The notes: generated from the sequence alone by a model not told the origin. A stretch of 64,000 bases of DNA from Squalus acanthias (GCA_030390025.1 CM059432.1:25856001-25920000), one strand, 5' to 3'. Shown: positions 601 to 58,280, numbered from the stretch's first letter. Translations and numbers: made by a program.

Positions 601-2274
601 TGTAAGATCCGGATCACAGGCCACACACAGATTACCCAAAAGGGTTTTAGAAGTTGTAAGGCTTTTATTAAAGAGCTAGGGGGGAAAAATTCAGTTGGTT
701 GCGCCTCCTGTTAGCGCCTTAAGAGTGCGCTAATGTGGCGCAAAGCATCTAGCGCCCAGGCGCGGCGAAGTTTGCGCCGCTCGCGAAATTAACTAGACAT
801 TTTGCGGCGGCGCTAAACACTACCGCCACGATCTCCTGCGCCGGCAGATCATGACGTCAGTCGAGTGTGCAATGCCCCGGTATCGCCCCGGAGCGGATAT
901 TGAGTGGCGCCCCCTGCCTTACCGCCTGACGCTAGCAACGACAGGTTGAGGGGAGCGTTCTGCAGTCATGAAGGGAAAGGGGGAGCGCTATTTAAAGGTG
1001 ACCGCTTCCTGCCTTTTATTGTTGGTGCCATTTTTGAACTACGCATTCTGAGAGAGAGAGGGAGAGACTTCTGGAGAGATTTAACGTTGTGTGAAGGAGT
1101 TTTGGGTACTGAGCAGCACTTTGCAGGTTCATTTTGATTTGCCATTCCTTGTATCGATTTAGCAGAGACTGTGGGGGCTGCACTCTGAGCTCTTTGCCTG
1201 GTACTCTCCATTGTTCTTTCCAGCACATTTGATGTGCAAGTCTCTCCAGGCTGAGATTCAAGGCTGCAATGAACAGGATGTGGATGGAAAGCAAGATTAA
1301 CCATCCCCTTTAAGAACAGGCCCGTGCCATTGTGTGTGTGTTCCATTGCTGACTGACATTACATGAGCTTCGCCAGCGCTCTGAGTTAGCGCCTCACTCC
1401 TCGGCCTTTGCGCCTTAAGACAGGTGTGCAGCACCTGATTTAGTGCTCCAATCACCTCCCGGGGCGTTAAAAGTGAAGTTTCCAGTCAGTGGCGATAATT
1501 AGCACCAGGCGCTAATTTTTGCGCCCGGATGATATTTGCGCCCCAAATGGGGCGCGACTGAATTTTTCCCCCCTACAGTTTTAAAGCATAATCAGGTATT
1601 ACATATGGTTTAAGCCGAGTATAATAGACATACAACCCGTGACAGTAGGAGCGATCTACGACTCCCGAATCAGAATGCCACGACCGGACGGACAGGGAGG
1701 CAGTACGGTGGTCTCGGATTGGGTGGATTCCTGCAGTCTGCTGCAGCGGTCACTTCCGTTGGGTCATCTCTCAAGCTGTTGGAGGTGTTAGGCCGACAGC
1801 CACCTTAGACGCTAAACTTGACTAAAGTGTTAGGCCGTAGCCACTCGGGGAAACCTTCGCCCCTAACTGCCTGATTTCCTCTCTCGGTCGTCTATATTTA
1901 TAGTTATTTCAGTGGGCTGGTAGTCACCTGGTGTCAATCATTTGATCCCCCATCCTATTATCCAATTGTGAAGCGGGAAGGCATCCCTCGCCGTCCCTTT
2001 CTGCATGACTGACGAGGCCTCCCTCTTATCTTTCTGAGGAATGTTTTGTTATGTTTCTTTAAGGACATTTTATGACTTTTCGGCTCCATTTTTGTCTATT
2101 ATCCCCCACCCTGTGTTGTTTTGCATTTTACGATTCCCTTATCACTTCTATTTGTGTTTTGATGCTTGATATTTGACCTTGCTCGCATTTCTGCAATCTG
2201 TTCCCGGCTGCATGTTGTCAGTCTCTGTTCTAAGAATTAAAACCCATCTTTGAATCTAACAGCTATTTCTTACA
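601..2274 (-). mobile_element. Solo LTR (~780 bp once the nested MITE is removed), ERV or Gypsy type
   Basis: Termini TGTAAGA...TCTTACA; 4-bp TSD CAAT (597-600 and 2275-2278); CR1 continues on both sides; minus-strand TATA-like TATAAATA near 1895-1902 and AATAAA at 664-669. Confidence 0.85.
679..1572. mobile_element. Non-autonomous Harbinger element (MITE-A), copy 1
   Basis: TIR GGGGGAAAAATTCAG...CTGAATTTTTCCCCC; probable TSD CTA; near-identical inverted copy at 41266-42144. Confidence 0.9.
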
Positions 2275-3058
2275 CAATGGAATGTATATTAGTTGAGAAT
2301 TTTGGAATATTTCTTTAAATGTTTGCCACTGCTTATCTACCGTCATACCTTTTAATCTAATTTTCCAATCTACCCTAACCAACTCACCCCTCATACCTAT
2401 GTAATTGTCTTTATTTAAGTTTAAGACTCTAGCATTTTACTCTGAAATCCAATGTGAAATTCTATCATATTATGATCACTCTTCCCCAGAGGTTCTTTAC
2501 TATGAGATAACTAATTAACCCTGTCTCACAATACAAGATCTAAAATAGCTTGTTCCCTAGTTGGTTCCACGATGTATTGTTCTAGGAAACTGTCTAGAAT
2601 CCATTCCATGAACTCATCCTCCAGACTATCTTCGCCAATTTGATTTGCCCAGTCTGTATGAAGATTAAAGTCCCCCATAATTATTTTATTACCTTTGTTA
2701 CAAGCTCCTATTAGTTGTTGATTCATACTCTGTCCAACCGTATAGCTACTGTTTGGGGGCCTATAAACTACTCCCACCAGTGTTTTCTGTCCCTTGTTAT
2801 TCCTTAGCTCCACCCATACCGATTCTACTTCCTGATCTTCCAAGCCGAGATCCTTTCTCACTACTGTCCTTGTGTCATCCTTTATTATCAGGGCTACGCC
2901 CACCCCACCTTTTCCATTCTGCCTGTCTTTTCGAAACGTCAAGTATCAGGGAACAGGGAGACTTGGAGTTTACTTTGAAATCTTTGAAGTTGACAGGACA
3001 AGTTGATAATGCTGTTAAATAAACCAATGGGATCCCTGGCTTTATAAATAGAGGCATT

Positions 3059-3870
3059 GGGAGGAATTCTAAACCCCCAAAATGGGTGGGATTGGGTCGG
3101 GTGGGAAGTAAAAATGTAAAAAATCTCAAACCCACCTCAAACCTGCCCACTCAAACCCGGTTTTAACAGCGGCGGGACTGGGGGCAGGCGACCAACCCGC
3201 TCCCAGGAGGTGGGTCGCTCATTTAACTATTAAATGAGACTGCCTCGGGAAACCCGGCAGCTAAAGGGAGGCGAGGACTGCTCCATGGAACAGGTAAGTG
3301 ACTTTACAACACTGCTTGTGAGCCAGGAGGAGCAGGAGTGCTTCCCTCCTGCCCCCTCAAGCACACCCGTTAACCTCCCCAGCGATCCAGTGCTCCCCTG
3401 ATGTCTTCCACGGCCAACAATCTCCTCCCGGCCCCCCATGTCCTCCAAGGGCCCTCGCGATATTCGCCCCTCCTCCGCTGATCTCTCCAACTCCCTGCAA
3501 CCTTCTCCCCTCCTCCCCTCCTCCCCAATATCTCCGTCACCCCCAGCGATGGCCCCCTCTGACCCCTGATCTCTCCACTCCCCCCATCGATGTCCCCCCC
3601 GTCCCCGACCCCAATCTCACCCTCCCTCCTCTATGCTACCCGATCGCGGCCTGGTCCCAAAGACCTACCCGCCTGACAGCCAGCCAGCCTCTCAATCTGG
3701 CTGGCTGCAGTCGGGAAACGGAGTCCAAAAATGGTAATCAGGTCCTGCCGTTAAATTCAGCAGGTCCTGCCGTTAAATTCAGCATGCCCTGAGGGAAAGC
3801 CCGTTGTACCCGCTTTCCTGACTGCAAAACTGCCCCTGCTCCCTCCCACCTTCCCGTTAATATCGGGGCC
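3059..3870. mobile_element. Harbinger-type MITE (MITE-B) with C-rich interior
   Basis: Ends GGGAGGAATT...AATATCGGGGCC; TSD ATT/ATA; interrupts CR1 (gaggcat|agag); related in reverse orientation to 47001-48601. Confidence 0.8.
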
Positions 3871-6860: not shown

Positions 6861-7694
6861 CCTGAGTGATGAGAATGTGGAACTCGCTGCCACAGGGAGT
6901 GGTTGAAGTGAATAGTATAGATGCATTTAAGGGGAGGCTAGACAAGCATATGAGGGAGAAGGGAATAGAGGGTTATGCTGATAGAGTTAGATGAGGAAAG
7001 ACGGGAGGAGGTTCAAGTGGAGCATAAATGCAGGCATGGACTGGTTGGGCCGAATGGCCTGTTTCTGTGCCGTATATCCTGTGCAATCCTATGTAATACT
7101 TGAAGGGGAGAAAATTGCAAGGCTATTGGGAAAGAGCAGAAGAGCAGGACTAATTGGATAGCTCTTTCAAAGAGCCGGAACAGGCACGATGGGCTGAATG
7201 GCTCCCTTCTGTCGTGGGTGTAAGATTGCATGGGTGAAAAATTCAGTTCCTTCGCGCCTCCCCTTTGGGCCAGCTGAGACGAATCCAGCGACGCACGGCA
7301 AACCTGCTCCCCTGTTGCGCCACCAGTACAAGGTACCTCCAGGGACTTCAACGCAGGCAGATTGTGACGTCAGTGAACGTGCAACGCTCACTGCCCGCCC
7401 GATCTGTGAAATTGATTGTCGCCACCTGCCTTAGCACCTCGACCAAACAGCGACAGGGAGAGCTGGTGTGAAGCAGCCGGAAGCCGGCTCTAGGGATGTT
7501 ATTTAAAGGGTTCATGAGTAATGAGCTGCAGCTGTCAGGTTCGTGATGTTTCATTGCTTTCCTGTCAGTTTGACATTGTGCAACAGTTTAATTCAGTAAT
7601 TTAAAGGTTATTTTGTATCAGGAGTGTTGTGGGAACTAAAAAGTAGTTATATTTATTCTTTAAAAAATCAAACCACTACACTTGGCTTACATTA

Positions 7695-8885
7695 ATGGGG
7701 GCTGTACTCGCAGTCGACCTGGCCCTCCAGGATCTACGGTGAAGGGAGCAGAGGCAGTGAGTAAGAGTGCAGCCAGAGGGAGGAGGAGGGCCATCACGGA
7801 TCTCAACAGGAGGCCTTACCCTCCGAGGGTATTCCAACAGCACTTCTCCTACCTCCAATTAAGTGAGGAACAGTGTATTAGAAGGCTCTGCTTCAACAAG
7901 GAGTTGGTCACAGAACTCTGCCACCTCTTGCAACCAGAACTGCAGCCTCGGGTCAGGGCAACCACAGCTCTCTCAGTGGCAGTCAAGGTCACCGTCGCCC
8001 TCAATTTCTTCACCAGTAGATCCTTCCTGTCTGCAGCAGGAGACATAGCTAACATTTCACCATTTGCCGTCCATCACTATATCGGGAGGTTACAGAGGCT
8101 CTCTACAGTAGAAGAAGGGATTACATTTCCTTCCCCATCACCAGAGAAGCAGAACGAGCGTGCATGTGGCTTTGCCAGGATAGCGGGCTTCCCCATGGTG
8201 CAGGGCACCATTGACTGCACCCACGTGGTTTTGCAGGGCACTGCATAAAAATCCTGACATCTTCCGTAACCGCAAAGGGTACCACTCACTTAATGTTCAG
8301 TTGGTGTGCGACCACAGACAGCGAATCCTCAGTATGAATGCCCGCTATCCTGGCAGCAGCCACGATGCCTTCATCCTGCATCAGACCGGTGTGCCAGAAC
8401 TCTTCCAGCCACCATGTCAAGCTGGTGGCTGGCTGGTCGGAGACCAGGGCTATCCACTCTCCACCTGGCTCAAGCCTTCCCTCCGCAATCCTAACACTCC
8501 TGCCCAGCACTCATATAATGACAGCCATGCTGCCACCAGGAACATCATCGAGGAGACCATCGGCCTGCTGAAGCAACGGTTCTGCTGCCCTGACTGCTCG
8601 GGAGGAGCCCTCCAGTACTCGGCTGAGCAGGTGTCCCATTTCGTGGTGGTCTACTGCATGCTCCACAACTTGGCCATCAGGAGGGCCCAGCCCTTGCCAC
8701 CAGGGATTGCGGGACCACCTCAGCAGGGGGAAGATGGAGAGGAGGAGGAGGAGGACGAGGAGGAAAAGGAAGACAAGGAGGATGATGAGGAGGAGGAGGA
8801 ACAGGAGCGAGGGAGGAGGCAGCCGCTCTATCGGGCTTCCCGAAGTGCGGTCCGTGATCACCTCATCAGACTGCGGTTCCAATAA
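7695..8885 (+). pseudogene. Harbinger (HARBI1-like) DDE transposase with frameshifts and stops
   Basis: VQGTIDCTHV, NRKGYHSLNVQLVCD, ARYPGSSHDAFIL, WLVGDQGYP and RNIIEETIGLLKQRF retain D-D-E; acidic tail; likely start ATGGGGGCTGTA at 7695; split between ORFs 7682-8248 and 8211-8885. Confidence 0.92.
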
Positions 8886-9050
8886 ATTAAACCCCAGATC
8901 CCCGTTGCTCACCACATCCCCATCATTTCATCCCTGTCGCAGGCCATATCACAGCGCAAAGCTGAAATGAGACACAACACAAAAGAATCCAAACTGAATG
9001 AATAAATTTATCAATAATAAGTGAACACATATTTACAACAAAAATATTAA

Positions 9051-10953
9051 CTATTCACCCTTATGCAATCCCTTAGTGCCTCTCGTTACTGTGCCTTTGC
9101 CTACTCTAGTGCTTCTACAAAGTGTTGGCCCAGTGGCTGCAGCAGGGCTGGTGGAAGGCTGCTGAGTGTCCGTGCGGGAGACTTTAGATGGCCTTGCAGG
9201 ACGCCCTCGACCAGTTCTGGGCCTGGAAGGCCAGGCTGTAGACTGCACCACCTCAGCATGGGTGGCAGCAGTCTGGGCTGGCTGGAGGACAAGCAACGAC
9301 AAGGGCAATGGTGGAGTGGCAGTGGTGGGAACAGGAATGCTATCATCCTGAGAGAGGACAGCAGGTTCCTGCTCCACTGACCCACTGCCACTCCCCCGGG
9401 GCAGCACCTCAGCATCCCTAGCAATCTGTTGGAGGACAGATTGCGGGCCTGCTGCGACATCGTGAAAACCCCGGTCGACGGTGGTAGACCCAGCCATGAT
9501 GGCAGCAGTCAGAGCTTGCGTGGCATCAAGCTGAGACTGCATGAGTGCAGTCTGAGATTGGATGCCACCAAGCATAGACTGCATTACAGCACTAAGGCAT
9601 TGCGTCGCTTCCGCCTGTGCTGCAATGGAAGCTGCCAGATCGCCCATCACACACGGCATCAGGTCTGGGTCACCACGGTCTCTCTGGGAGTCCACCATCC
9701 TTTGCAGACTGGCAATGATGGGCTCTATGGTGTGCGCAGAGCCTTGTGCAATGTTGGAGGCGGACTCCTCCACGCTCCTTATTATTGCCAAGAGGCTGTC
9801 AGGGCACCCTTGCCATTGCACCTATCATCTCCATGTGCATGCCCAGCACCCTTCTTCTAAACACCTCCCCATTGAGGTTCTCATCTGAGTCCTGTGCAGC
9901 AGAACTCGTGTGCGAACTCGCCCTCCAGGGAACTGGCCCCCGAGCTACCTCTTCCCCCTGGCCTTGCTGAAGCCCGCTCGTCCCTGGTGCTTCACCCTGT
10001 GCAGCTCCCACTACTATACTAGTCTCTAAAGAACGCGTAGTGCCAGTATCTGAGCTATTGCCTGCGGGTGAGACATGTATTAATGCAGTGTGTTCTTCCT
10101 CCTCCTCTTCTCCCACATCGCTCTCTATGGTGCCCTCAGGGACAGGCTGCTCAGGTGCTTGCTAATTATCTGAAAGCATAATGGCACAAGAGTCAGATTA
10201 AGGTGAGGGGAGGGGGGCAGAAAGGGAGAAATGCATGCATACAGCATGATTAGCTGGAAAGTGCGAAATGATTGTGGGATGAGGGGGAAGTGGAATGTGA
10301 GAAGAAGGAGTAGGGATGAACATACCGTTGTTGTCCCCAAGGGGGTCAACATCGCTGGTGGCCATGGCGCCCACCACCTGGCGCCCAATAATCTGCAGCA
10401 CTCTTTCCTCCAGCTCAGACAGTGGTTGGGTGTCAGCTTGTTCCCCGCCTGTGCGCTGCTGCTCCCTCCTATTGTGAGCCACCTTGCAAGAGAAAGAAAA
10501 GTGTGTGAGTGAGTGTGGAGCAATGTGTTTGGGTGATGTGCCTGTCATAGTTGAATAGCTGTCATTGTGTACAAGGTGTGAGATGTGGGTGTGAGTGTTG
10601 GTAGTTAGAGGTTGTTGGTGGGTGAGTGCTGGGGGTGTGGTGCTTTGGGCAGTGTGTGCAGACTGTGGTTCAGATGGTGGTATGCAGCATTTGTTGAAGC
10701 ATTGACTCACCCTGACCACCTGAGTGAGATCGTCAAATTTCTTCTTGCACTCTGTGTGGGTCCTGGAGACCACAGTGCTGCCCGAGATGTGCTGCGCTAC
10801 CTCCCTCCACATGGTGCGGAAGTCTTGTGGCGAGGGCCTCCTGCCACTTGCCGGTAGAGCATCGCCCTCCGTCTCTCCACAGTGAACACCAATGCCATCA
10901 AATGCTTGATCGCAGAATCTGTGGGCTCTCTCCCTGGGACGTGGATCTGCCAT
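9051..10953 (-). pseudogene. Harbinger Myb/SANT (trihelix, MSANTD/NAIF1-like) DNA-binding gene; exons ~10953-10711, 10482-10326, 10169-9051
   Basis: MADPRPRERAHRF...WREVA...RTHTECKKKFDDL then GTGAGT donor; exon 2 AHNRREQQRTGG then GTATG donor; exon 3 has an early TAG and a frameshift near 9810. Confidence 0.85.
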
Positions 10954-11719
10954 GAGTACAGCTGCTTCAGTCATCTGGCTCCTTATCCTTGACCTGTTGT
11001 TGCTTACTAAGGCAGCTGCACAGCCAACAATGCTGAGAATGAGGTTCTGCAGCATCAATGAACCTCCCCTTTAAGAACTGGAAATAGCCTGTGGCAATGA
11101 TGACTTGCGATTAGATTGCACACAATATTGGTCCACCCTTTGAGTGTAACGCCAATGAGCTTGGGCTTTAAGGCTTGAATTAGCGCTCCAATCATTTTTT
11201 TGAGCAGTGAGAATGAATTTTGCGTGCAGGTTAAAGCATTAGCGCCTGGCGCTAATTCCCCAACTTTTCTAATGATACCGCCCATTCCTGGCCTGTAATG
11301 AATTTCTAACCCATGATTCTATGGGGGGAATTTTAATGGGTTAGCATCAGGTGAGATGTTAAAATTTTTAAAATCTCAAACCCAACCCCAACCTGCCCAT
11401 GATGGAAAGTACACATGTGTAAAGTTGTTGGGTGCGGTCAGATTGTGATTGCTCCCTGTGCAGACACTTACTCCCTTGGCTTATACATGAAGAATGGTAA
11501 TTTGAGTAAACCAATAGAGGGCAACCACCAGTCGTGACTCTATATCTGAAAATATAACTTTGCTAACAGATCAAAGAAAATTAGATAGGGCAGAAGAGAG
11601 TCTTGAACTGATTTTCAGTCTTCTATCTGACTGGCAGCTGTCCGTTATTCCATATTAGAGAACACAATGAGTTATCAAGACCAAATGGAGTCTGTCAAGT
11701 AAAGAGACAGAGGTTATTT

Positions 11720-12757: not shown

Positions 12758-14312
12758 GACCGCAAATTTAATTCTGGAGGCGGGATGGGGGCGGGTCAGC
12801 TGGTTTCCGGGTTCCAGTCCCGCCCCCAGCTACCTCCGCTCTGCAGACGTGATTTTCCCTTGATTGGCCTTGTTAAGCCCGCCCTGCGGGCTTACCGGCC
12901 AATTAACAGGAAGTGGGTCTGATGACATCATTTGATGATGCGTCTTCTGCCGGTTTCCTTAAAGGGACCATGCACAATTTTATTTTGACAGTTGATCTGT
13001 CAGTGTTTGACAGCATTGAAGTGCTGCAAATACTGACAATCACTGCAAAGGTGAACACTTGCACACAGGCTCTCCAATGACTCCCTCCATATGCTTATGG
13101 AGGGAGCCACAGCATGCAGGAGGTTCTCTTCCCTTCCGAGGGTGGTAGAGACATCCCCAGAACACCAACCTCCACCCAACCCTCTCCATCTACTTTATCA
13201 CTTCCCCATCTCACTAGCAACCCCTCACCCTCACCCTCATCCTACTGCAAGCATACCAACTAACAACACACAAGGGTAGACACTTGAGAGGTTTAGCCAA
13301 TGTCCATGTGAAGTTTCTGGTAATGTGTTGTCATACAGTATAATACCGTTTTCCAAAAGTGCCCATAATTGGACAGATCTGAGTGCACATTGAGAAGTGT
13401 CTTACTGAGTTCCAGTGATTGTTCAGTCATAACTCCGCCGCCCCCCCCCCCCCACCACCCCCGCTATAGTGATGTGTGTGCATGGAATGGCTTGGACATT
13501 AAAGGGATGCTTCACGGTGCTGCTGTCGGATGGTGTCAACCTGGTAGCCAGGATTTACAGCATCAAGTGAAGAAAATCTGGCCATGGTGATGCCTCCCGG
13601 CCAGCAATTTTCGTCAGGTGCTGATGCCCTGTGTCCAGTGCAGCATCAGGTGGGTGAGGAGGAGGTTGGCGCTCCTGGTGCTGGTGCTGCTGTTGTGGCT
13701 GGTTGTGGTACTGCCGCAGCTGCACTTCCTCTGAATCTGACGACCAGGATGAGAGGATGTAAATGGTTCCCATCCCGTTGCTATAGATTTCAGTTGAGGC
13801 AAGAAGCTTGCAAGCGCACACTCAAAGTAGCCTGAAATTATTCCAATCAGGTAACACTGCAGATGGGTGTCAGCTTGAACAGTCACAAGGTCAGTAGATT
13901 TGCAAAATCTTATCCCAAACCTCCAACAACAAAGTTGTTGCATTTGAATGTCAGCCATGTTACAGGAGCGCTTTTAAAGTGCTGCACCAATGACTACAAA
14001 TCATGTCCTCCAGCAACTCATCTCCTTACAGCTGGCCTGTTTCTGACAAGACAGGAAACAGGAGCTAGAAGCCCGAAAATGGGAAACCACTTTCAAAATG
14101 GGATTAGCAAGGCAGTTAACAGGCTCTTAACTGCCTTAACTACCTGTCCCACTGGTTCCAGTCGGGTCAGTTTGGGAGCGGCTGACCCGACACTCACGAA
14201 AATCGGGTGGGGGTGGGATGGAGGCGGGTTGGGCATCTGAAGCCATTTTTTTCGATTTTCGCTGCCGACCCGCCTCCAAACCCGCCTCCTCAGGGCTATT
14301 ACAATCGAGCCC
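12758..14312. mobile_element. Internally deleted Harbinger (same family as 35238-38470)
   Basis: TSD GTT. Keeps the transposase-side N-terminus on - (MGTIYILSSWSSDSEE, ~13770) and a Myb N-terminal remnant on + (~13060-13140, SNDSLHMLMEG...EVLFPS). Confidence 0.85.
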
Positions 14313-25277: not shown

Positions 25278-27344
25278 GGGGGAGTGAAATTCGATAAGGC
25301 CCAAAAACGGGCATGGGCACCGCGATGCGAGATATGCCCGCACCCGTTCAGAAAGCACAGGCAGCACATCAACTTGGTGCTGCCTGCGAATGATCATAAT
25401 TGTAGCGCACAGCTTAGCAACTAACGCGCCACTGACAGGCTGTGCGCTCAACAGGGGGCCCAAGTTCGCGTCGCTGGAGCGAGGCTGGCTTTGCTTAAAG
25501 CTAGCCTGTTCCTTTTCAAGGCAGTCTGCAGCTCTTAAAGCTGAACTGCCTTCTGCACATGAAAAAAGCTAAAAGTGCTTCAGCACTAACAAAAATGACT
25601 CAATAGGCCAGGGAAAGGGCACCCAGGGTCTCGGACGCAGCACTCTAGCTTTGTGCAGGGGTCAACACTGGAAGAGAGGTCTTCTGCCCACAGGAAGCCA
25701 GGAGGCCCTCCAGAAAGAAGGATGTGGGACCAGATCACCAAGGCCGTCACTGCCAGCAGTGTTGCCTTTAGGATCTGACTCCAGTGCCCAAAGAAGTTTC
25801 ATGATCTCAGATGAGTGGTCAAGGTCAGTGACTGCATCTTCAAAAGCCGTCTCCTACCAACTGCACCACTAGCCTCACACACTGCTCGATGCATGACCCC
25901 ACCCCATCACTCACCTACCAATAATCTCTACCAAACATGAGGCACACTTGAAGAGACAGTGCTGGCCATTCTTAGCAGGGGTATGGCTGAGCCCTTGGCC
26001 AGCAGTGGGGCTGAAAGAATACAAGATGCTGGTATCCTCATACGTTACCCTCCTTCTCACATCCACTTCCCCCTCATCCCACAATATCTTCTCATTTACA
26101 AGCTGTACATGGTGTAAGCATGCGCCTCTTGCTTTACCCCCCCACCTCCCCTCACCACAACCCTACCCTGTGCCTTCCCCATTTCAGACACCCAAGAAAT
26201 CCAGTCTGCCCAGCCAGTAGGTGACCAAGAAGAGGGAGAGGAGAGTGAAGAAGAAGAAGAAACACAGTCACTTGATTTGACACTCCCAGCCACCAGCTCC
26301 TCGAGGTCGTCCTGCAAGGCCATCTGCAATGTCCCCCACTATATTCAGCAACCTTCCACCAGCCATGCTGCAGCCACTGGGGTAGCATTGCAAGACATCA
26401 GTAGGATAGGCAAAAGCACAGGCAAGACAGTCACTAAGGGAATGCACAAGGGTGATTCGTTGATTTTTTGATGTTGTATTGGATGCATATATGGATAAAG
26501 TTGGATTGGAAAGTTTGCTTTGTGATGGCTTTTATTTCAGCAATGTGGCCAAGAGGACACTGTGATGGTCAGTAACAGAGGGAAGATAAGGTGTGGGACA
26601 AATGTTGAAAGGGGAATTGGGGTTGTGGTCACTGGTACCATGGGTGGATGATTCAATCCAGGATATCCCGGCCAGAAAGGGGCTGTCTGGGTTGCCTCCT
26701 TCCTTCTGATTCCTCCTCTTCTGGTTTTTCCTCTTCTGCTTCCTCCTCTTCTGCGAGCAGCTTGTCCCCTTTGCTGCCTCTGCTTCATCTTCATGTGATG
26801 TTGCAGCCCAAGGGGGACTTCAACTAGAGCCCCTAGGACTAAGAGCAAGTGGTCTTCTCAGAGGCCTTCCTTTAACAGCCAAAGCCTTGCAAACATCCAG
26901 CAGCACTCCCTGCACACTTTAACAACTTTTTAAATGTATTGCACCAAGTCACTACTCCAATAAAATGTAAAACAAAAGTCCAAAAGCAAAAATCTAAATT
27001 TACCTGAAAGATGTGTGTGTCCCTTTAAGAAGCGCTGGCAGCATCTCTGTTAAACTGATGCACGCAATTTCTTCCATGTGTGGTTTGGAGAAGGCAGCAT
27101 CAAGAGCGGTGACGTCCAAAATCACAAATTGTGTGTCAATTCAGACGTTGCATGCCGATTGACGTCACTATCTGTATCATTTAATTGTGGGTGGTGAGGG
27201 CAGGCAACTACAGCGCTGCTGACCTGCCCAAAATGGCGGCTGCCGCGTTCCGCACTGGAAGCGAGGCAGCCGCCATTTTTTCAGCAAAACCGGCTTTAAC
27301 GGCCGGCACTACACCTCCCATTTTCGCAGGCACGAAGTTTTCCC
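25278..27344. mobile_element. Heavily deleted Harbinger inserted in a DeuSINE copy; same architecture as 7232-11312, reversed
   Basis: Myb start remnant on + at ~25595 (ARERAPRVSDA); Myb C-terminal remnant PRGRPARPS..KGMHKG at ~26300-26455; transposase C-terminal remnant on - at ~26640-26750; SINE halves on both flanks. Confidence 0.75.
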
Positions 27345-27804: not shown

Positions 27805-28278
27805 GGGTAGAAATTGTTATGGCCTGTTTTTGGGCACATAACCAACAGTGCACAGACAGCAAGTGCCCGAACTGGTAGGCCCGGGGTTCACCCTAAATTG
27901 GGCCTCAAGCCTCATTTCAACACTTCGAGTGAGCTGCTGACACCAGCTGCACATCCAGAGGGATCTTGCCCATTTCAAGGGAATTAATTTAGGACCGCTT
28001 GCCACGCGAGCAGCAGCACTCAGGTAAGTCCCAGGAGGGATGAGGACAACAGGAGGGGGGCCAATCATAGGCCGGCAGTGGCCCTCAGGAGTGCTGTGGA
28101 GCCAGGAAGAAAATTCCTGCTCCTCCTGACTCCACATCAAGTGTTAAAAAAAAAATGTACTTACATTTTTGTTCATGGCTGTCGCTTCGCTGAAGGCCCC
28201 TAACTTGGGGTTGGACCTATTGTCTTTTGAGCTGGTCTACGCCCAGAAATGGGTGTAGTGGAGTCCAATTTCTCCCCC
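27805..28278. mobile_element. Harbinger-type MITE
   Basis: TIR GGGTAGAAATTG...CAATTTCTCCCC with subterminal tttgggc/gcccagaa inverted similarity. Confidence 0.7.
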
Positions 28279-35237: not shown

Positions 35238-38200
35238 GGGCAGAATTTTCATTGACCCTTGGAGGCGTGTGGGGGGTTAAAATTGCGAAAACTGGCGGGC
35301 GGGCACAAGCCCGCCTCCATCCCGCCTCTACGCAATTTTCATTAAATCGTGTCTGCTGGTCCCGACTCCGTCCCGCCTCCAAGAGGCGGGATAGGCCGTT
35401 AAGGCCCTTAACAAGCACCAAATTGCCTCTATAATGCCATTTTGAAAGGCCTTTGTGATTTTAACCCTTTTTCCACGTGAAGCACGCCTGTTCTGAACCA
35501 CGAATGTGAAACCTGGCGGTAGCACATTTGGATTACTGACTATCAGCTGCAGCTCAACCATGAAATAGGAGATGTGATCAGCCATCATTTGCAGTTGGCA
35601 GGACTTTGTTGTCTGAGGTCTGGGGGGAACTTTTATATGGCATAACCACAGCTGTGGAAGTTTGGAGCCTGACACCCATCTCCAGTGTGACCTCCTGGGA
35701 AACCCCTCTCGCCACCTTGACTGAGAGCTTCCTCAACTGAGGCATATACCAGAAGCATGGGAACCATTTATTTCCTTTCCTCCTGGACATCAGATTCGGA
35801 CGAGGACCAGCCGTGTCAGCAGCAGAACCATGAACAACAGCACCATCAGCATCAACAGGAGTGCCAAGCTGCTCCTCACCCACCTGAAGCTGCACAGGCC
35901 AGAAGGCACCAGCACGCGACCACATTGCTGCCCGAGATGCAAGGGACGCACTTGACCAGATTTGCTTAGCCTGTACAATCAAACACTTTTGCCTCACACC
36001 TTCTTATCAGATCATCGACAATGGCCAGGAACCTGCGGATTCCTATCAAGCTGACCACCATACTGACAATTGCAAGTCATCCTAAGCCCTCAATGTGGAA
36101 GTCCCATTTGCGAAATGACAGACGCCACAACTTCAGCAGTTTGCCAGCAGAATTTTTAATCACACCAAGCAAGTGCTGGCATTTCAAGATTAAACACAAC
36201 ATTACACCCAAGTGACTACCCTTGTGACTACTTGTGCATTATTTTTCTTTTACGCGTGCTCCTACATGGTGCTTCCCCTGTGGCTTCAGCAGATGTGGAG
36301 GCCCCTTGCTCACTTTCTTGCTGCTCCTGCCTCGACACCTTTGGCGGGCGTCCTCTGGGGTTGCGAACCTGTGAGGGCTCGGCAACAGTCTGCTGCTCCT
36401 GCGGCTGTGCAGGGGTTGAGACGCCCATCTCAGTTGGGTGAGGACTCTGATGGGGCTCTGACCGAGGGCTTTGCAGTGGATTGGTCGTGTGAGCGCTTGG
36501 AGAGGAGCCCCCACTTCCTTGTTGTCTGCCACCAACATCCCTCTCATGGGTCAGCTCCCCCTCAGCACTTGCAAGTGGATTGAGAGCACCTTGCTGCACA
36601 TCAGGGGGGCCATGGGGACCCGTATCTGCACTGGAAGTCCTACTCAGAAGGACTTCCATGAAGGTCTGGTTTCTGTGTTCAATAGATGACCATCGCTCCT
36701 CAAGAGATGCCAGTCTATTCTGAACAATGACCATGTTTTCTACACTCTGGCGACTTATCTCCTCCATAGCCATAGCCATCCTCTCCTCTACTGTATCCAT
36801 CCTTTCCACGGAGGTTGCCATCCTTTCCGTGGTGATGGGTTCATGCGCCAATGACTCCACAAAGGCTCTGCTCATGTTCGCTATGGACTCCTCCAATCGC
36901 TCCACACTCACAGTGACCCTGGAGACAAAACCTGCCAGAGACTCCTGCATCTGTTCCTGGAGTTCCAGCACCGCTGATCTTATGGATGGACCCAGAGGCA
37001 GAGGGTCGACATGCAGCTGAGCCGAGCTAGGAGAGTCCTGCGCCCTCCGACTAGGACTCTCCACTGCTGTCCCTGTCTCCACTATCTGCTGATGCTCACT
37101 TGTGAGCTGTGATACACCAGGTGACAACACTACTCTATCTCACGATGTTCCCTCCGAGGTGTGAGTGTCTACGCTGGTGCTGGGTGTGCTGAATTCTGCT
37201 GACGCGGCGCCCTCAGAGGTTGCAGCTTCCTCTGAGGAGTAGTGAGGCTCATGCTCTTCCTCCTGGACGGTGGGGACGGCTGCTCGCAATGGTCCTGGGG
37301 GGGAGTAAAGGAAAGAGTCAGAGATGTGAGTCCAAGGTTACATGCACATTGCATATTGCAGATGATCATAAGACAGTCTGCTGGAGCATCAGAATCATTA
37401 TCAGTGACATGCAATGTCAATGAGAGAGATGATAAACTATTCTGTCACCAGCTTGCTCTGATGCACCCGTCTGTCCGTCCCCCACTTGCGCATCCTCCTC
37501 CACTCCCATGATCTCCACGACTGCCTCCTCCCAGGTGGTGAGCTGGGCTACTGAGGGTGGCCCTCCTCCTGTCCTCGCTCTTTCCCTCTTATTGTGAGCT
37601 CTCTTTTCCTGCAATGAGGGAGACAAGTGGAGTTTGAGTGAGAATGAAGGAGTGAGTGTAGAGAATCTATATCATTGATGGTTAGAAGGAGACAAATTCA
37701 GAGTGAGGTGGCAAGACCATGGGCCCTCCCTGTGTGTTTTAAGTTGTTTTCATAGCATCACAGCGATAGGGAGTGTGAGGGCTGCACAGTCGAATAGTTA
37801 GGTGAATGTGACCATACAGAGAGAGGGAATGGGTAAGGGTGCAGGGATGTCAGTGTCAAGTGGGATGTGGAGGAAGAGGTTGTCAAAGCTGAGTGCTGGT
37901 GAGGAGAGGCAATGGGGATCAGAATGAGGGTGATGGGAAATTCATACTCACTTTTCCAGTGCGCAGAAGGTCATGAAACCTCTTCCTGCACTGAAGCCAG
38001 GTTCTGTGGGTTATGGACAATGAGTTGACCTCCTCCGCCACCTGGATCCACACAGCCTTGGTTTGATGGGAAGGCTTCTTCCTCCCTGAAGAAGGGAAGA
38101 GCACCTCTTTATTAGCTCTGGCTCCCTCAATTAAAGCTTGCAGGGCGACGTCATCAAATCGAGGTGCAGACCTAGGTCTCTGGCTGGCCATTCTTCCTGC

Positions 38201-38470
38201 AGGTGCCTCTAACATGCAAAGGCAGAAGCTTGGCAGTCTGCAGAGGAAGCAAGGCTTGTTGCAGACCTTAAATGCTGCAGCAATGATGACGTCATCGGAA
38301 GCAACTTTCAGACTGGAAAAACTCACTGGCCATGGGTTCCCACACGTTGGAACTCAATTGGCCAATTATGTTAAAATCGCATCAATCTCCCACATCGATT
38401 TAGATTCGGGTGGCTAACACGAAATGCGGATTACACAACCCCAGCCCGCCCCTGAATCAAAATCCAGCCC
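35238..38470. mobile_element. Harbinger retaining the Myb gene; transposase largely deleted
   Basis: TIR GGGCAGAATTTT...AAAATCCAGCCC; TSD GTT; only the putative transposase N-terminus (35757, MGTIYFLSSWTSDSDED) remains. Confidence 0.9.
36228..38191 (-). pseudogene. Myb/SANT gene, exons 38191-37952, 37608-37449, 37294-36228 (~488 codons, one internal TGA at 37142-37140)
   Basis: GT-AG introns in phases 0 and 1 give a continuous frame: MASQRPRSAPRF...WIQVAEEV...QCRKRFHDL / EKRAHNKRERARTGGGPP / predicted coiled coil / PRGRPPK / RSTRKRK. Confidence 0.88.
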
Positions 38471-40699: not shown

Positions 40700-42206
40700 T
40701 AGGCCGAAGGAGCGTTCCGTGCAGGGGAGCAGTTTTGAGGTTAGGAAACCCGGAAGAACGGGTTTCCCAAATGTCCTGCAGTTTTTTTTTTTAATTTCTG
40801 TCGATTTCCCAGCCGGATTGACAGGAAGCTTGCAGCGCAAGACCGCAGCTCAGAAGATCAGGTAGGTCTAGCGGTCGGGGGGAGCAAATGGCAGTCAGAG
40901 GGTCCCATAGTAGTCGGGGGTTCCGCTGGTGGTCAGGGAGCAGTTGGTGGTTGGGTAGAGAAGATGGTGGTGGGGGGGTGCAGACAGATCGTGGGGAGGA
41001 GGGGGCGGGGTGGTTACTGGGTAGCTTGTTGGGTCTAGAGGAAACACTCCTCATCCTCCTGGCCCACAAGCAATGCTGGGCAACCCAGCCGACATGAGTT
41101 AAACATAGAATGACTGTTCAAACGATGGCAGGCAGCCTCATTATAATATTTAAATGACCAACTCACCTCCCGCGAGCAGATTGGTCACCCTCCCCTCGTA
41201 CCGCCTCCATTAAAAACGGAAGTGGGTGGGTTCAAGGCAGGTTGGGTTCTTGTTTTAGATTTTTTGGGGGAGAAATTCCGTATCGCCCCATTTGGGGCGC
41301 AATTATCGGCCAGGCGCAAAGATTAGCGCCTGGCGCTAATTATCGCCACCGACTGCAAACTTGACTTTTATCGCCCCTGTAGGTGATTGGAGCGCTAAAT
41401 CAGGCGCTGCACACCTGTCTTAAGGCGCAAATGCCGAGGAGCGAAGCGCTACCTCAGAGCGCTGGCGAAGCTCATGTAATGTCAGTCAGCAATGGAACAA
41501 ACACACAATGGCACGGGCCAGTTCTTAAAGGGGATGGTTAATCTTGCTTTCCATCCACATCCTGCTCATTGCAGCCTTGAATCTCGGCCTGGAGAGACCT
41601 GCACATCAAATCTGCTGGAAAGAACAATGGAGAGTACCAGGCAAAGAGCTCAGAGTGCAGCCCCCACAGTCTCTGCTAAATCGATACAAGGAATGGCAAA
41701 TCAAAATGAACCTGCAAAGTGCTGCTCAGTACCCAAAACTCCTTCACACAACGTTGAATCTCTCCAGAAGTCTCTCCCTCTCTCTCTCAGAATGCGTAGT
41801 TCAAAAATGGCACCAACAATAAAAGGCAGGAAGCGGTCACCTTTAAATAGCGCTCCCCCTTTCCCTTCATGACTGCAGAATGCTCCCCTCAACCTGTCGT
41901 TGCTAGCGTCAGGCAGTAAGGCAGGGGGCACCACTCAATATCCGCTCCGGGGCGATACTGGGGCGTTGCGCACTCGAGTGACGTCATGATCTGCCGGCGC
42001 AGGAGATCGTGGCGGTAGTGTTTAGCGCCGCCGCAAAATGTCTAGTTAATTTCGCGAGCCGCGCCTGGGCGCTAGATGCTTTGCGCCCCATTAGCGCCCT
42101 CTTAAGGCGCTAACGGGAGGCGCAACCAACTGAATTTTTCCCCCTTTATGTTTTAACCTCTGACACGACCCCAACCCACCCATTTTTGGGAGTTAAGATT
42201 CAGCCC
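40700..42206. mobile_element. MITE-B-like element hosting MITE-A copy 2
   Basis: cagcctcattataatatttaaatg and taaaa.cggaagtggg are shared with 48415-48600; the sequence resumes after 42144. Confidence 0.65.
41266..42144. mobile_element. MITE-A copy 2 (inverted relative to 679-1572)
   Basis: GGGGGAGAAATTC...GAATTTTTCCCCC; TSD TTT; near-identical ORF translations to copy 1. Confidence 0.92.
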
Positions 42207-42586
42207 ATTGTTTTTGATCTTCAGGCCGCTTCTGCCCTTTAAAGGTCCCTCACTGGGCCTTCTCATGTTACAGAAATCTCCCCACCGCAGCAGCACCAAG
42301 ATTCTTCTTCTTTACACTGGCGAACTCACTCTTGTCAGCGGGAATCCTGCCAGGCGCGGGGCTGGGTGGATACATAGGGTCGGCCAGAAGTCCTGCCCGA
42401 CCAGAACTCTGTCCCAAAGAGACGCAAAGTAATCTGAAAATGTTGAGTGCTTCTGAGCTGCAGCCTTAAACAGGGAAGTACTTTCCAATTTGAAAAGTTC
42501 CCTGACCAAACAACAATTGAACTTGGGTTTACCTAACAACAATTTAAGGCCTTTTGTGAAATTAAAGAGACACAGGTCCTCTTAAA

Positions 42587-47000: not shown

Positions 47001-48601
47001 GACCTGAATTTTAATGGGGAGGGCTCGGAAGCAGTCGGGAAACCCGGGAGAAGGGGTTCTCCGCAGGCCCTGCCGAATTTAATGGCAGGGCCTGATTTGC
47101 AAGGGAAACCTCTGTTTCCCACCCGCAGCCAGCCAGATTGAGATGCTGGCTGGCTGTGGGCAGGAAGGCCTGTGGCACTAGGTCACAGAGAGGAGAGAGG
47201 GAGGGATCACGTGGGAGCCGGGGGGCGGCCAGAGAAGCTCGGGGGGTGGGGTGGGTGTCTGAAATGATCGGGGGGCAGCAAGGGGGGAGTGCAGTCAAGT
47301 GATGATCGGGGGCCAGGAGTAGCATGGGAGGGGTAGTGGGATCAGGATCGGGGGCCAGGAGCAGCACGGGGTGGGGGCAGGAATGATCGGCGGCCAGAGG
47401 AGCAGGGGGGCGGGTGTCATGAATGGTCAGCGGATGGAGGAGCGGGGGGGTGGGAGGGAATATTAGGGAATGATCAGTGGCCAGAGGAGCACAGGGATGA
47501 CAGGGGAGGGGGGTTGCTGATTACAATCAGGGGGCAGAGCAACAGATCGGGGGCCGGAGGAGAAGGGGTGAGGTTCGGAGAATCATCAGAGGGGCAGGAG
47601 GAGCATGGGAGGCCAGGAGGAGCAGGGTTGGGGGAGGAGGAACTGTGGGGGAGGCAGACGACATCAGAGGGCCAGAGAAGCATGGGGGGCGGGAGGCCTC
47701 GTGGGGGGGATCAGAGGCCTGGGGAGGGGATTGGAGGCCTGGGGAGGGGATCGGAGGCCTGAGGAGGGGGATCAAAGAAAAATAGAAACATAGAAACTAG
47801 GAGCAGGCCATTCGGCCCGTCGAGCCTGCTCCACCATTCAATACGATCATGGCTGATCATCCAAATCCAGTACCCTGTCCCTGCTTTCTCACACCGAATC
47901 CCCACATCGAGCCTGCACCTATCCCACCCTATCCCCGTAACCCCACGTATTTAATTCCCCCTAACATATCCCATCCTATCCCCATAACCCCACATATTTA
48001 ATCCCCCCCTAACACTAAGGGTCAATTTATCATAGCCAAATCAACCTAACCCGCACATTTTTGGACTGTGGGAGGAAACCGGAGCACCCGGAGGAAACCC
48101 ACGCAGACACGGGGAGAATGTGCAAACTCCACACAGACAGTCACCCGAGGTCAGATTCGAACCCGGGTCCCTGGCGCTGTGAGGCACCAGTGCTAACCAC
48201 TATGCCACCGTGTTGCCCTTGTGTGGGGGGGGGGGGGGCTCCGATCACAGGGAGTTGGTTAGGTAGGGACGCTGGATCCAGGAGATACGTGTAAAGGCAC
48301 TTACCTCTTGGTTCCAGCTGTCCTCACCTTCCATTAGCTGCCGGGTTTCACGAGGCCTGCAAAACCCAACCAGCTAAACTTAAATTCCAAATGGAGGTTA
48401 AGTCAGAGGCTTCCAGCCTCATTATAATATTTAAATGGGCGGCCTGTCTTGGCAGCGGGTTTCCTGCCCGCTCCGTCCCGCCGCCATTAAAACCGGAAGT
48501 GGGCGGGTTGGAGGCGGGATCTCATCGGGATTCAGATTTTTAACACTTTAACCTCCCACCCGACACCAACCCACCTGTTTTTTTAGGTTAAAATTCCCCC
48601 C
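47001..48601. mobile_element. MITE-B copy with G-rich interior, interrupted by a SINE
   Basis: GACCTGAATTTTAA...TTAAAATTCCCCCC; TSD TAT; shares the CAGCCAGCCAG..CTGGCTGGCTG hairpin with 3677-3707. Confidence 0.8.
47780..48218 (-). mobile_element. HE1/V-SINE-like SINE, copy 2
   Basis: Near-identical to 12208-12624, with a complete 5' end (GGGCAACACGGTGGC). Confidence 0.88.
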
Positions 48602-49710
48602 TATATCTCTGAAAATGTTGTTCCCAGGAAGGAAGAAAGTAGTATCAAAAGCCAAGAAATGCAATTGTCAACAATATGGCCACTGATACTCAGCACCTAG
48701 CTAATTGAAATCCATCTTTAACTGTAGAAATTTCACACGTATCTAATGAATATTTCACTGCAGCAATATGACTTCATCCAGTAGTCTTGTTATTTAAGGA
48801 GTGAAAAGCTTGAGGCTACAGAACTCTCAAACGTCTTGTTTCTTCTCTGAAGCCTGAAACTCCATCGCAGCACTAACATAATCACGTCTCTTATTTACTC
48901 AATAAATTATGTTTATTACATTAATATTGAATATGTTCTATTATTAATCCTGTTCCTGCTGCTGAAACCCTTCAGATCTCCTTCACATCAACAGTAATTA
49001 ACACTTGGACTCGGCTTCCAAGTAGTGTACTGGAGACAAAAACCTTGGAACCATTTACGAAACAGTTTGTTGCGGGATTGGCTCTTTCTGGATGGGTGAT
49101 CTAAGATGGACTGAATGGGCTTCATCATCTGTGTCCATCTTGTGATGTTGTGAACAGCCATCGTGACCACTCAGACAGGGGGCCTTCACTGGGACATTGG
49201 ATTGTTTTGACTGGCACTCAGAGCTGTCAAAACTGGGTAAATATTAGGAATGATATTTATGATCAGCAAGAATAACACAGATTATGAACCCATTTAAAGG
49301 CTGTGTTTATTATTAGGAGTGACACACATCAAAGTAAGGGACATTTTAAACCATAAAAAGCAACTGGCGCTGCCAGCGCATGACACTTGATTCTCGGGAA
49401 TTTGCTGCTTTTCCCTGTTGTGTTAAAAAGTCACCAAATTAATTTGTTGAAGTGAGATTTAGCCATTTCTTGCATGATGAGCAAAAGAAAAAAAAATCGT
49501 ACATGCCAGAAATCTGAAATTAAAAACAGAAAATACAGCTGAGAGACAGAAAGAAAGAGAACGAAAAAGTGTCGAGTGGGACCCGACATCAAAACTGACT
49601 TTCCATCTCTTTCAAATGCTGACTGATATGTTCTGCCTTTCTAGAATTTTCCACTTTTCCTTTCTTGATCAAACCAGATTCCTCCAACTCCCATTTATGC
49701 TGCTCTCCAT

Positions 49711-52566: not shown

Positions 52567-52686
52567 TGTAATAGAGCCACCTGGTGGACTACTGATGTAT
52601 ATAATAATAAAGCCATATGCAGTACAGTTCTTACCAGAAGTCATGTTGTGCTGTTTTATATATATGCTGTGTCTCAAGATATCACA
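52567..52686 (+). repeat. 5' LTR (120 bp)
   Basis: TGTAATAGAGCCACC...GATATCACA, a direct repeat of 58281-58387. Confidence 0.95.
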
Positions 52687-52690
52687 GAAT

Positions 52691-52709
52691 TGGCAATGAG
52701 GATGCGATT
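52691..52709 (+). promoter_or_regulatory. Primer binding site, tRNA-Ser(GCU)-like
   Basis: TGGCAATGAGGATGCGATT compared with TGGCGACGAGGATGGGATT, the recalled complement of the vertebrate tRNA-Ser GCU 3' end; two of three mismatches are CpG-type. Confidence 0.7.
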
Positions 52710-52859
52710 GCGGATTCCCTGGCTGAAATTTTTGTTGGAGGATAATCCTGCCAACCGACGGAGAGACTGTTAGAGGTTCTTCATTTTGCAGAAAAACTTA
52801 AAAATCCGAGGTAAATTTCAAGCACACGTGGCTGAACTGTTGACATTGCCAGAGTCTTG

Positions 52860-54500
52860 ATGGCCATGCCTATGGGAATAATAGGGTCCTTGGGTGAGTT
52901 CCATCATGACCGAGAGACTTTCGGAGCGTATGTGGAGCGGCTAGAAATGTTTTTCACTGCGAATAGTATTGTCGAAGTCCCCGATGATGTAAACCGTAAC
53001 CCGGCGGTTTTAGAAATGAGGCTATTTCTTTTGACTGAAGCAGGCCCCCAGGTGTATAAAACCTTGAAAAATGTGTTTGTTCCCGCCAAGCCGAAGGACA
53101 CGCCACTGAAGGAGATCCTAACCAAGTTAGAACAGCACTACAGTCCTGAGCCCCTGGAAATTGCTGAAAGTTTTGGAACATGCGATCAATTAAATGACGA
53201 GGGTATCAGTGAGTACATTGTAGCATTAAAAAAGCTATCCATTCACTGTCATTTCGGAAACTTTCAGGACCAAGCTTTGCGTGACCGCTTTGTTTGTAGG
53301 TTGAAAAATGAACGTATGAAAAGTAAATTGTTGACAACCCCTAACTTGACTTTTGATTTAGCTTGTCAGACAGCTATGTCGATGGATATGGCTGACCGAT
53401 ACTCCCCAGAGTTCCGCACCATTTCCAGTTGTCAGACAACTGAGGTGAATTGGCTGCAGGCTAAAAGTAAAAGGCAGTTGGTCCCCAAGGCCTCAGCAAC
53501 TGGCCAAGGTAACAGTGCATTGACGTCGTGCTATCGGTGCCTGGGATAACACATCACTCAAAGCTGTCCATATGTGAAGGCAGAGGCCGGGATCTTACCT
53601 AAGGAGGCGCGTTGGGAGCGGGACTGCTGGTTTCCAGGTTCTAGTCCCGCCCCCAGCGACGTCTGATAAATAAACGCTATTTTCCCTTGATTGGCCTTTT
53701 AAAGCCCACCCTGCAGGCTTGCCAGCCAATTAAGGGAAAGCCAGTGTCAGATGACGTCAGTGCATGACGCTTCATCTGCCGGTTTTGTTAAAGGGACAGG
53801 CACCATAATTTTTTGACAGATGAATTGTCAGTGTTTGACAGCATTGAGGTGCTGTCAAACACTGACAATCACTGTCCAAAGGTGAGCCCTTGCTCCCAGG
53901 CTCACCAATGATACTCTCCTTAGGAGAAAACAGATGGCAGCTGCATGTGAGATTGCAGAAGCCATCTGTCAATTCTGCCGATCAGATGAGGCTTCACAGA
54001 AACATCAAATCTTGTCACCTGCAGATATATATAAACATAATAAAAATATTTCTCACTACATTCTCTCACCTGTCATACTTACCTGTGCACCATTGCACCT
54101 ATCACACTACCTCTGCAGCTGTCATTTGCACACTTACACTGCAGCAGACCCACAGCTCGCCTCGCTGACCCTGGCGGGGTTTCCCGCTGTCGGGAAGCTC
54201 GCATCAGCAGGCTGAAAATGGGGAAAAGTCTCTTAACTGCCTGTTAACTACCTGTTAACAGACAGTTAATTGGCTCTAATCCCCTCCCCGCCGCTAGGAG
54301 ACGGGTCCCTGTGCGAGTCGGGGACCCGCATCCTGGGAAGATGGTTCGGAGGCGGGTTGGGTGCGGGGTTGGGACCCGCTCCCAATTTTTCCCATTTTCC
54401 CAGCAGTCCCGCCTCCAAACCCACCTCCTCAGGGCTGGGAAAATCCAGCCCAGAGTGTTTCCACTGAAAGAAAACTGGGCATCTTGCGAAGGCGTGCCGA
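52860..54500 (+). pseudogene. Gypsy gag with two CCHC knuckles, split by a MITE
   Basis: IGSLGEF...YVERLEMFFTAN...LRDRFVC; CYRCLG*H...C then CFH*KKTGHLAKAC after the insert. Confidence 0.88.
53585..54451. mobile_element. Short Harbinger derivative (family of 12758 and 35238)
   Basis: TSD AGA; termini colinear with 12758-13090 and 14060-14312. Confidence 0.85.
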
Positions 54501-54579
54501 CAGAAGAGTAAACCGACTGGCAATGCTAGAAGTAGAAATGGCCAGACACTACATACCATTGGAGAGAAGCAGCAGGATG

Positions 54580-58118: not shown

Positions 58119-58280
58119 ATATGGAAAATAAGTTCATATCTTTTGTTTCTGTTACAGAATTCTATAGTAGAATTTGGAAACATAAAATGGGCTCCATTTG
58201 AGAAATGTATACCAAGAGTTGCGTGCACCAGGCAAGTCATATACAATGATTATTTGCTATGATCTATAAGGAGGGAGAAG

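Follow-up and report, generated by a model that had tools for sequence, protein, structure and literature searches.

The origin of short non-autonomous Harbinger MITEs by internal deletion, and of derivatives that retain a single ORF, is documented in the available parts of several reports (PMC2836001, PMC2213677, PMC8437027, PMC13668399), which between them cover deletion series of Harbinger-Snek (PMC8437027) and mPing (PMC2836001) and series from Medicago (PMC2213677) and C. inopinata (PMC13668399). For Harbinger3, the excerpts available state that both element-encoded proteins are needed and that the Myb-like protein binds the element ends (PMC2836001, PMC9179366). The mPing/Ping pair and the Tourist-like MITEs are described in the accessible sections of PMC2836001 and PMC12595863 as short, non-coding, high-copy internal-deletion derivatives with inverted repeats, and the element reported here is likewise of this form. 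mPing is, according to the same sections, mobilised in trans by a transposase together with a Myb-like protein, and the same mode may apply here. Amongst cartilaginous fish, one survey, in the part available, recorded no Harbingers in the elephant shark and proposed other members of the group for checking (PMC9179366).

The window (the whole 64,000 nt stretch of DNA analysed) contains two copies, A and B, of an element which, judged by its sequence, is made up of both ends of a convergent Harbinger, which meet approximately 15 nt and 29 nt inside the genes (Table 1). This reading is based on the colinearity of both arms with the full-length relative H1, on the distances from the element ends to the gene starts, and on a sequence variant at the Myb-like start. 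We consider it likely that the element represents a high-copy non-autonomous PIF/Harbinger family which arose through one internal deletion of a convergent two-gene parent, with the promoters of that parent carried as passengers.

Table 1. Positions in the window of the element, its parts and related Harbinger-like sequences.
Feature	Position	Strand	Remarks
Copy A, non-autonomous Harbinger element	679..1572	+	extends to 1573 with a 2-bp duplication
Left terminal inverted repeat	679..695	+	matches 1573-1557 at 17/17
Transposase-side arm	680..1170	+	subterminal and promoter-like region, 5' leader; homology to H1 7232-7710
Four subterminal TTAGCGCC/GGCGCTAA motifs	711, 809, 1386, 1508 (711..1515)	.	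candidate Myb-binding sites
TGACGTCA palindrome	852..859	.	137 nt upstream of the TATA-like box; 7/8 window copies in Harbinger-like elements
TATA-like TATTTAAAGG, transposase side	989..998	+	putative; aligns with 7500 of H1
AATAAA	1015..1020	-	candidate poly(A) signal; sole AATAAA/ATTAAA in element; also in copy B
Transposase start remnant	1171..1185	+	5 codons (V)GAAL, then stop; 13/15 nt match to 7695
Deletion junction	1183..1185	.	CTC fits the end of either remnant; putative 3-nt microhomology
Myb-like gene start remnant	1183..1211	-	9 codons MESTR(Q/E)RAQ; ATG at 1211
Myb-side arm	1212..1572	-	leader, TTAAAGGG box (1306-1313), CCAAT (1448), subterminal region; homology to H1 11313-10925
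Right terminal inverted repeat	1557..1573	-	perfect partner of 679-695
Copy B	41266..42144	-	same junction as copy A; within A-run of another short repeat
H1, decayed full-length Harbinger	7232..11312	+	sister family; anatomy reference, not parent
H1 transposase, frameshifted	7695-8885	+	PF13359, E 3e-19
H1 Myb-like gene	from 10953	-	Myb/SANT domain matched weakly (PF13837, E 0.007, under the cut-off)
H2, Harbinger relic	about 25280-27330		Myb from 25595 (+), transposase start about 26836 (-); convergent
H3, Myb-only relic	35238-38470		3-bp GTT duplication; open first exon 38191-37949 (-)
H4	39603 to about 40300		left arm of the MITE at 66% over 263 nt
H5, shorter derivative	about 12760-14312		frameshifted Myb stub, ~13060-13150, z 4-7.5
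H6, shorter derivative	53585-54451		appears without gene start; AGA 3-bp duplication

The inverted copy B carries the same junction as copy A, as the original prediction had stated, and the two are 94.1% identical across 893 alignment columns, with 39 substitutions (15 of CpG type) and one 14-nt indel between them. The terminal inverted repeats, a feature of non-autonomous PIF/Harbinger elements, pair at every position and are also common to the ends of H1. Coding capacity for transposase or Myb protein is lacking, only five and nine gene codons being left in the element. Its longest ORF (126 aa, minus strand) gave no Pfam match and no exact database entry, and the same was true of an 81-codon frame (966-1211, minus strand) which is opened by the Myb ATG, runs antisense through the transposase leader and is open in both copies; we treat both ORFs as accidental. 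An Rfam search of the element returned no matches at E values up to 1, and its RNA fold (z -5.4, 20 shuffles) is attributed to the inverted ends and subterminal palindromes and was not taken as a structured RNA. The 10-mer GGAGAGACTT is present in both leaders, at 1061-1070 (+) and about 1240-1250 (-), and pairs in the predicted fold, and we estimate a shared 10-mer to be at about chance level at this length. The short-repeat family that surrounds copy B (41200-41265 and 42145-42215) also occurs at 3050-3150, 11323-11400 and 48500-48602, with nine A in the run around copy B versus 4-6 A in the paralogues.

The transposase and Myb-like genes of H1 are convergent, with AATAAA or ATTAAA signals between the gene ends at 8881, 8886 and 9001, and comparison of the two genes with shark proteins by tblastn gave best E values of 4e-117 and 2e-37, respectively. 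Relatives of the H1 transposase comprised 11 shark/ray proteins at 51-76% identity and six more distant ones, the closest (up to 76% identity) being HARBI1-annotated ‘putative nuclease’ shark/ray proteins (P0058-P0068). The N-termini of four of these 11 proteins read MGALL, MGADL, MGALV or MGVLL, similar to MGAVL at 7695, and position 7695 is therefore taken as the true transposase start. The Myb-like relatives open with M..R.RA[PK]RF or similar, all nine of those looked up by name being from sharks or rays, which makes an elasmobranch host probable, and the proteins closest to the Myb genes of the window are annotated as ‘myb-related transcription factor, partner of profilin-like’ (P0003, P0006, P0009, P0015). 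The N-terminal motifs that survive in the MITE also occur in the shark and ray proteins of both kinds, which confirm that the segments concerned correspond to gene starts, a point on which the original prediction could have failed; these proteins are gene annotations given without element context, and none was identified as the parent.

The transposase-side arm of the element aligned with the corresponding side of H1 at 64% identity (292/457 columns, z 15) and the Myb-side arm with the opposite side at 61% (220/359 columns, z 9.5). In local alignments the matched pairs of arms reached z values of 29.8 and 19.2, compared with -0.2 and 2.2 for the crossed pairs and at most 0.6 for two control regions. 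The distance from the element end to the transposase start is 491 nt, versus 463 nt in H1, and that to the Myb start is 361 nt, versus 360 nt. The ends of the element are thus homologous to those of a two-gene DDE plus Myb/SANT element, and the colinearity of the arms with the two sides of H1 bears out the earlier proposal that the starts of both Harbinger genes were fused with their upstream regions retained. Alignment to autonomous Harbingers had been suggested as the means of mapping the deletion: both breakpoints could be placed, but on a sister family, since the direct parent was not found in the window or in protein or DNA searches. The nearest arms in the window are 61-66% identical, and no coding continuation was marked at the junction among the 24 loose-end rows listed. 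Four weak searches were likewise negative: a DNA motif for the Myb start matched none of the metagenome contigs, a shark transposase gave 152 pattern hits in metagenome contigs with none confirmed, the 54 aa that run in frame up to the junction had three candidates in a protein search with none scoring, and the H3 Myb exon gave 88 candidates amongst longer proteins, again with none scoring.

That no parent was found would also fit a chimeric or multi-step origin, with arms drawn from different Harbinger families by a template switch during gap repair, or with successive deletions. Mosaic Harbinger derivatives are described from Medicago in the available part of PMC2213677, and the left arm of the element is closest to H4 (z 36.5), the other end of which misses the right arm (z 0.2). 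However, both arms match one and the same relative, H1, at similar identity and the inverted repeats are identical over their full length, and we regard such an origin as improbable.

At the junction itself, GTGGGGGCTGCACTC at + 1171 agrees, as originally predicted, with the transposase start at 7695, two of the 15 nt being different; when both strands of the whole window were scanned for sites with up to two mismatches to the 15-mer at 7695, copies A and B were the only ones besides that position itself. Both copies have GTG in place of ATG as the transposase-side codon, with a stop already at codon 6. From the minus-strand ATG the predicted MESTRQRAQ could be read directly, and is Myb-like when set beside the Myb starts MADPRPRERAH and MASQRPRSAP, placed at 10953 and 38191; the pattern M-x(2-5)-R-x-R-A follows five of the 2229 ATGs in the window, namely those of copies A and B, that at 10953 and two at unrelated sites. 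The nonapeptide MESTRQRAQ opens none of the 57 Myb relatives. A variant at 1196, by which RQRA becomes RERA as in H1 and H2, accounted for 64%, 29%, 57% and 66% of the summed depth in the public runs X1, X7, X11 and X15, respectively. The two remnants meet where expected (~1183-1186), overlapping at CTC, and the junction is bridged by record 14 of X11, a run guessed to be RNA, in a contig spanning 1104-1296. The description ‘head-to-head’ holds in that two 5' ends abut, but the layout is convergent, with the promoters pointing at each other, and not divergent.

It is highly improbable that chance accounts for these start-codon matches and that unrelated filler makes up the centre of the element. 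The remnants are admittedly short (15 and about 29 nt) and alignment is weak over the leader regions; neither remnant was reported by the gene-start profile HMMs, for which longer stretches are required. On the other hand, a match of this kind to the 15-mer is expected about 0.001 times per 894-nt element and 5e-5 times within 40 nt of the predicted start place, the Myb ATG lies no more than 1 nt from its predicted distance, and the RERA variant is common.

Under the preferred single-deletion reading, the parent would have been an autonomous element of about 4 kb, with transposase and Myb-like genes that started near opposite ends and converged. A single large internal deletion would have removed about 3.2 kb, including nearly all of the coding sequence and the shared 3' ends, joining transposase codon 5 to Myb codon 9-10, and this may have happened in one step if excision of the parent was followed by abortive gap repair in which the ends were joined at the CTC microhomology. 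Amplification would then have taken place in trans, with a related transposase and Myb protein acting at both the inverted ends and the TTAGCGCC motifs of the subterminal regions. TTAGCGCC/GGCGCTAA motifs number 13 in the window versus 0.9 expected, 12 of them in copies A and B, H1 and H4. The promoter regions and leaders would have been carried along as passengers, still facing inward as in the parent. It is probable that the majority of copies are methylated and silent, and a minority in open chromatin may yield non-coding transcripts.

The breakpoints are unusually tidy in that both lie near start codons, which is suggestive. In a uniform random-breakpoint model, 0.3% of derivatives of 0.7-1.1 kb have both breakpoints at most 30 nt downstream of the starts and 1.1% have them within plus or minus 30 nt, values at which mere accident cannot be taken for granted; the model gives about 6% for one or more among six families, and the closeness to the starts was noticed after the fact. 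The breakpoints may instead have been selected without any promoter role, the deleted form having been amplified because loss of coding sequence left a small target for mRNA silencing and because the full ends with their cis-elements were kept. The low model probabilities and the abundance of the family in several organisms are in line with this, and a review, in the part available, both suggests a link between the lack of coding sequence shared by mPing and Ping and silencing and states that internal sequences raise or lower transposition (PMC12595863). Yet this pattern was singled out in hindsight, and the breakpoints of other derivatives in the window lie at different places, with about 32 transposase codons left in H2 and seemingly no start in H4 and H6. 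The 5' leaders are, moreover, still common to the element and the parent mRNAs, and selection of this kind is conceivable but on the whole unlikely.

The other Harbinger relics of the window show how such derivatives may vary. H2 retains most of the Myb gene and has lost the transposase core, its transposase start being joined to the acidic tail, and in this it resembles solo-ORF variants of Harbinger-Snek; profile E values for its Myb start and its transposase start and tail were 5e-5, 3e-4 and 0.19. H3 has a 240-aa open C-terminal frame (36228-36950), and by eye its transposase appears to be reduced to a putative start plus tail (35757-35960), the start scoring z <2 against all seven relatives and the tail z 4.1 against one of the seven. 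The Myb stub of H5 faces a region that is 72% like the left part of H3 and by eye holds a putative transposase start. Profile HMMs reported neither the H5 Myb stub nor the supposed transposase starts of H3 and H5, and because scores did not confirm these starts the two are counted only as probable convergent derivatives. H5 and H6 are related (80% over 321 nt). Beyond its arm, H4 carries GGTAAG/CTTACC splice-donor-like motifs and a central hairpin, with similar motifs at 27805-28278. Repeats of other kinds in the window include a reverse-transcriptase ORF of 711 aa (PF00078; 4705-6840, minus strand), which we take to be CR1-like and which has many truncated relatives, e.g. at 11-594, a second reverse-transcriptase relic at 59401-60686, and a decayed LTR retrotransposon (52567-58371) with LTR-like repeats at 52567-52654 and 58281-58371.

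In order to follow the element beyond the window we used public sequencing runs, which consist of strandless contigs without start-site information; two of those treated as ‘RNA’ are only guessed to be so and may be DNA. The empty site of copy A was present in all four of the runs X1, X7, X11 and X15, as a joint 675->1573 with 897 nt skipped and three letters fitting either side, although this may stem from paralogues of the flanking repeat. Loose ends at 680 were found in 62 contigs of X1, and those at 1572 in 114, 28, 8 and 7 contigs of X1, X7, X11 and X15, respectively, with a low consensus agreement (0.40-0.54) that indicates many different flanks. With two copies in the window and 62 plus 114 contigs in X1, the family is thus made up of many dispersed copies of uniform structure. 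The empty sites, the many flanks and the shared junction of copy B together uphold the earlier claim that the deleted form itself transposed. Between 0.37 and 0.82 of sampled words of the element were recovered in 17 of 22 runs, which carried six organism labels (one run being unlabelled) and of which the one with the highest share may stem from the source sample, and three runs recorded as RNA held 0.04-0.07 of the element words.

The sequence skipped at copy A corresponds equally well to 894 nt plus a duplicated CTA or to 895 nt plus TA. Copy B had been credited with a target duplication of its own: its flanks do fit one, but the length is ambiguous (AAA or AA) inside the A-run. The flanks of H1 read CAT and ATG, and H3 and H6 have clean 3-bp duplications. 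Neither the site of copy A nor that of copy B reads exactly as TWA, the target of PIF/Harbinger elements in the strict sense (PMC4482050), and a CWG duplication of the NuwaI/Harbinger3_DR type was found at neither of the two window copies. The loose-end consensuses are AT-rich, with ATA on the left and TAT or TAA on the right at 0.4 agreement. In the MITE/H1 clade a 2-bp duplication (TA, AT, AA) accounts for the flanks at least as well as one of 3 bp. A 2-bp duplication would be unusual in a Myb-bearing Harbinger, and the comparison covers three sites only.

Each side of the junction retains a TATA-like motif, TTTAAAGG at 991 and TTAAAGGG at 1306, as originally noted, and 12 of the 18 TTTAAAGG/TTAAAGGG sites in the window fall within Harbinger-like elements. 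The TGACGTCA palindrome, presumably CRE-like, occurs eight times in the window versus 0.28 expected, and lies 137, 137, 135 and 137 nt upstream of the TATA-like motif in copies A and B, H1 and H2, respectively. Conservation of this spacing in three diverged families suggests that the motifs derive from ancestral promoters, and the TGACGTCA, TATA-like and CCAAT motifs were probably real promoters in the parent, as far as sequence comparison can indicate; they could also serve transposition. By homology and motifs, then, two promoter regions face each other within the element. The convergent promoter module of the original prediction therefore stands as regards its layout but not as something special, since H1 and H2 are already convergent and inward-facing promoters are the default of any central deletion; on this comparison the facing layout is inherited from a convergent parent and not created by the deletion. 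A literature search, with most subscription papers outside its coverage, turned up neither a MITE reported to have facing promoters nor an account of gene orientation in vertebrate Harbingers, and the accessible parts of PMC9392472, PMC9179366 and PMC9710019 held nothing relevant to gene orientation.

A more active role for the facing promoters is improbable. Both would fire, likely in the germline, giving sense and antisense transcripts that overlap at about 1020-1290, and the resulting dsRNA or piRNA to both parent leaders could silence the family, or transcripts could enter the flanks. The preserved TGACGTCA-to-TATA spacing is in keeping with such activity, as are the alignment of the Myb-side CCAAT and TTAAAGGG with H1, the intact TGACGTCA and TATA-like motifs of both copies and the contig of X11 across the junction, and according to the available part of PMC9179366 Harbingers are transcribed in fish gonads, with a testis bias in medaka. 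The left arm is moreover still CpG-rich (observed/expected 1.14 versus 0.44 for the window), and copies A and B differ less between the TATA-like boxes (5 substitutions in 320 nt) than in the arms, where there are 10 substitutions in 301 nt and 24 in 272 nt, a difference which the lower CpG content of the inter-box stretch may or may not explain. Against this, contigs of the runs guessed to be RNA also cover the arms outside both boxes (30/30 bins), as expected of passive or DNA-derived sequence, the transposase side begins with GTG and is stopped at codon 6, and H1 and H2 already have the same layout. CpG decay in copy A, which points to germline methylation, is a further argument against activity: with a private change defined as one at which copy A differs from >70% of depth in both DNA runs, 11 were found among the 40 positions listed, and seven of these 11 are CpG to TpG/CpA. 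Read-through into the flanks is also less direct than had been supposed, since the opposite promoter lies in the way of each transcript and an AATAAA is present at 1015-1020 on the minus strand. Two depth measures were dropped as evidence. Contig depth between the boxes relative to the arms came to 0.72 and 1.0 for the DNA runs, compared with 1.65 and 1.31 for those guessed to be RNA, but contig depth is unsuited to ranking the parts of a sequence, the RNA assignment is a guess, and much of the difference comes from one bin. The even depth over the junction bin (1.1-1.7 times the median) was disregarded on the same grounds.

It is very doubtful, further, that the deletion was fixed as a mobile dual-promoter unit, with germline promoters firing inward over about 270 nt of leaders to give dsRNA or piRNA against both parent mRNAs. 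If this were true, the MITE would act as a repressor of the parent it came from, having spread by itself to many sites in several shark-like species. Were both promoters active, the many copies would form a natural source of antisense RNA or dsRNA against both parent genes as well as a set of portable promoters, with a bearing on how DNA transposon families shut themselves down. With the promoters as passengers, the reading we favour, the element offers a clear example of a convergent two-gene transposon collapsing into a MITE, marks Harbingers as abundant in an elasmobranch-like genome and, through the conserved TGACGTCA-to-TATA spacing, provides a concrete promoter model for vertebrate Harbingers.

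Compared with mPing, the element is about twice the size (894 vs 431 bp), and unlike mPing it retains the start-codon regions of both genes of a convergent parent; near-identity of both arms to one autonomous element characterises the mPing/Ping type, and the best relative found for the present arms is 61-66% identical. Harbinger-Snek of sea kraits, in the available part of PMC8437027, provides a vertebrate series with one gene or none that parallels H1, H2, H3 and copy A, though in a different host and family and with no orientation of genes or location of breakpoints given in that part. As regards regulation, the accessible sections of PMC12676858 describe Harbinger-N12A_XT of Xenopus tropicalis, a MITE found at liver-specific open chromatin and hence a precedent for a regulatory vertebrate Harbinger MITE; it is proposed as an enhancer in 21 of 3,521 copies, is 342 bp long and palindromic, and is described in those sections without convergent promoters. 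NuwaI and NuwaII of the PHIS superfamily (PMC4482050) are two-gene animal elements with DDE and Myb/SANT proteins and GGG ends, as here; their targets are CWG for NuwaI, shared with Harbinger3, and C|TNA|G for NuwaII, whereas CTA/TA and AAA/AA at the present copies match no PHIS group exactly. The zebrafish pair Harbinger3_DR/Harbinger3N_DR, in the parts of PMC2836001 and PMC3016246 available, combines the same two genes, DDE and Myb/SANT, with GGG ends and a non-autonomous partner, as does the present system. On the features compared here, the element works like mPing or Harbinger3N_DR and is a known kind of non-autonomous Harbinger that forms a new high-copy family.
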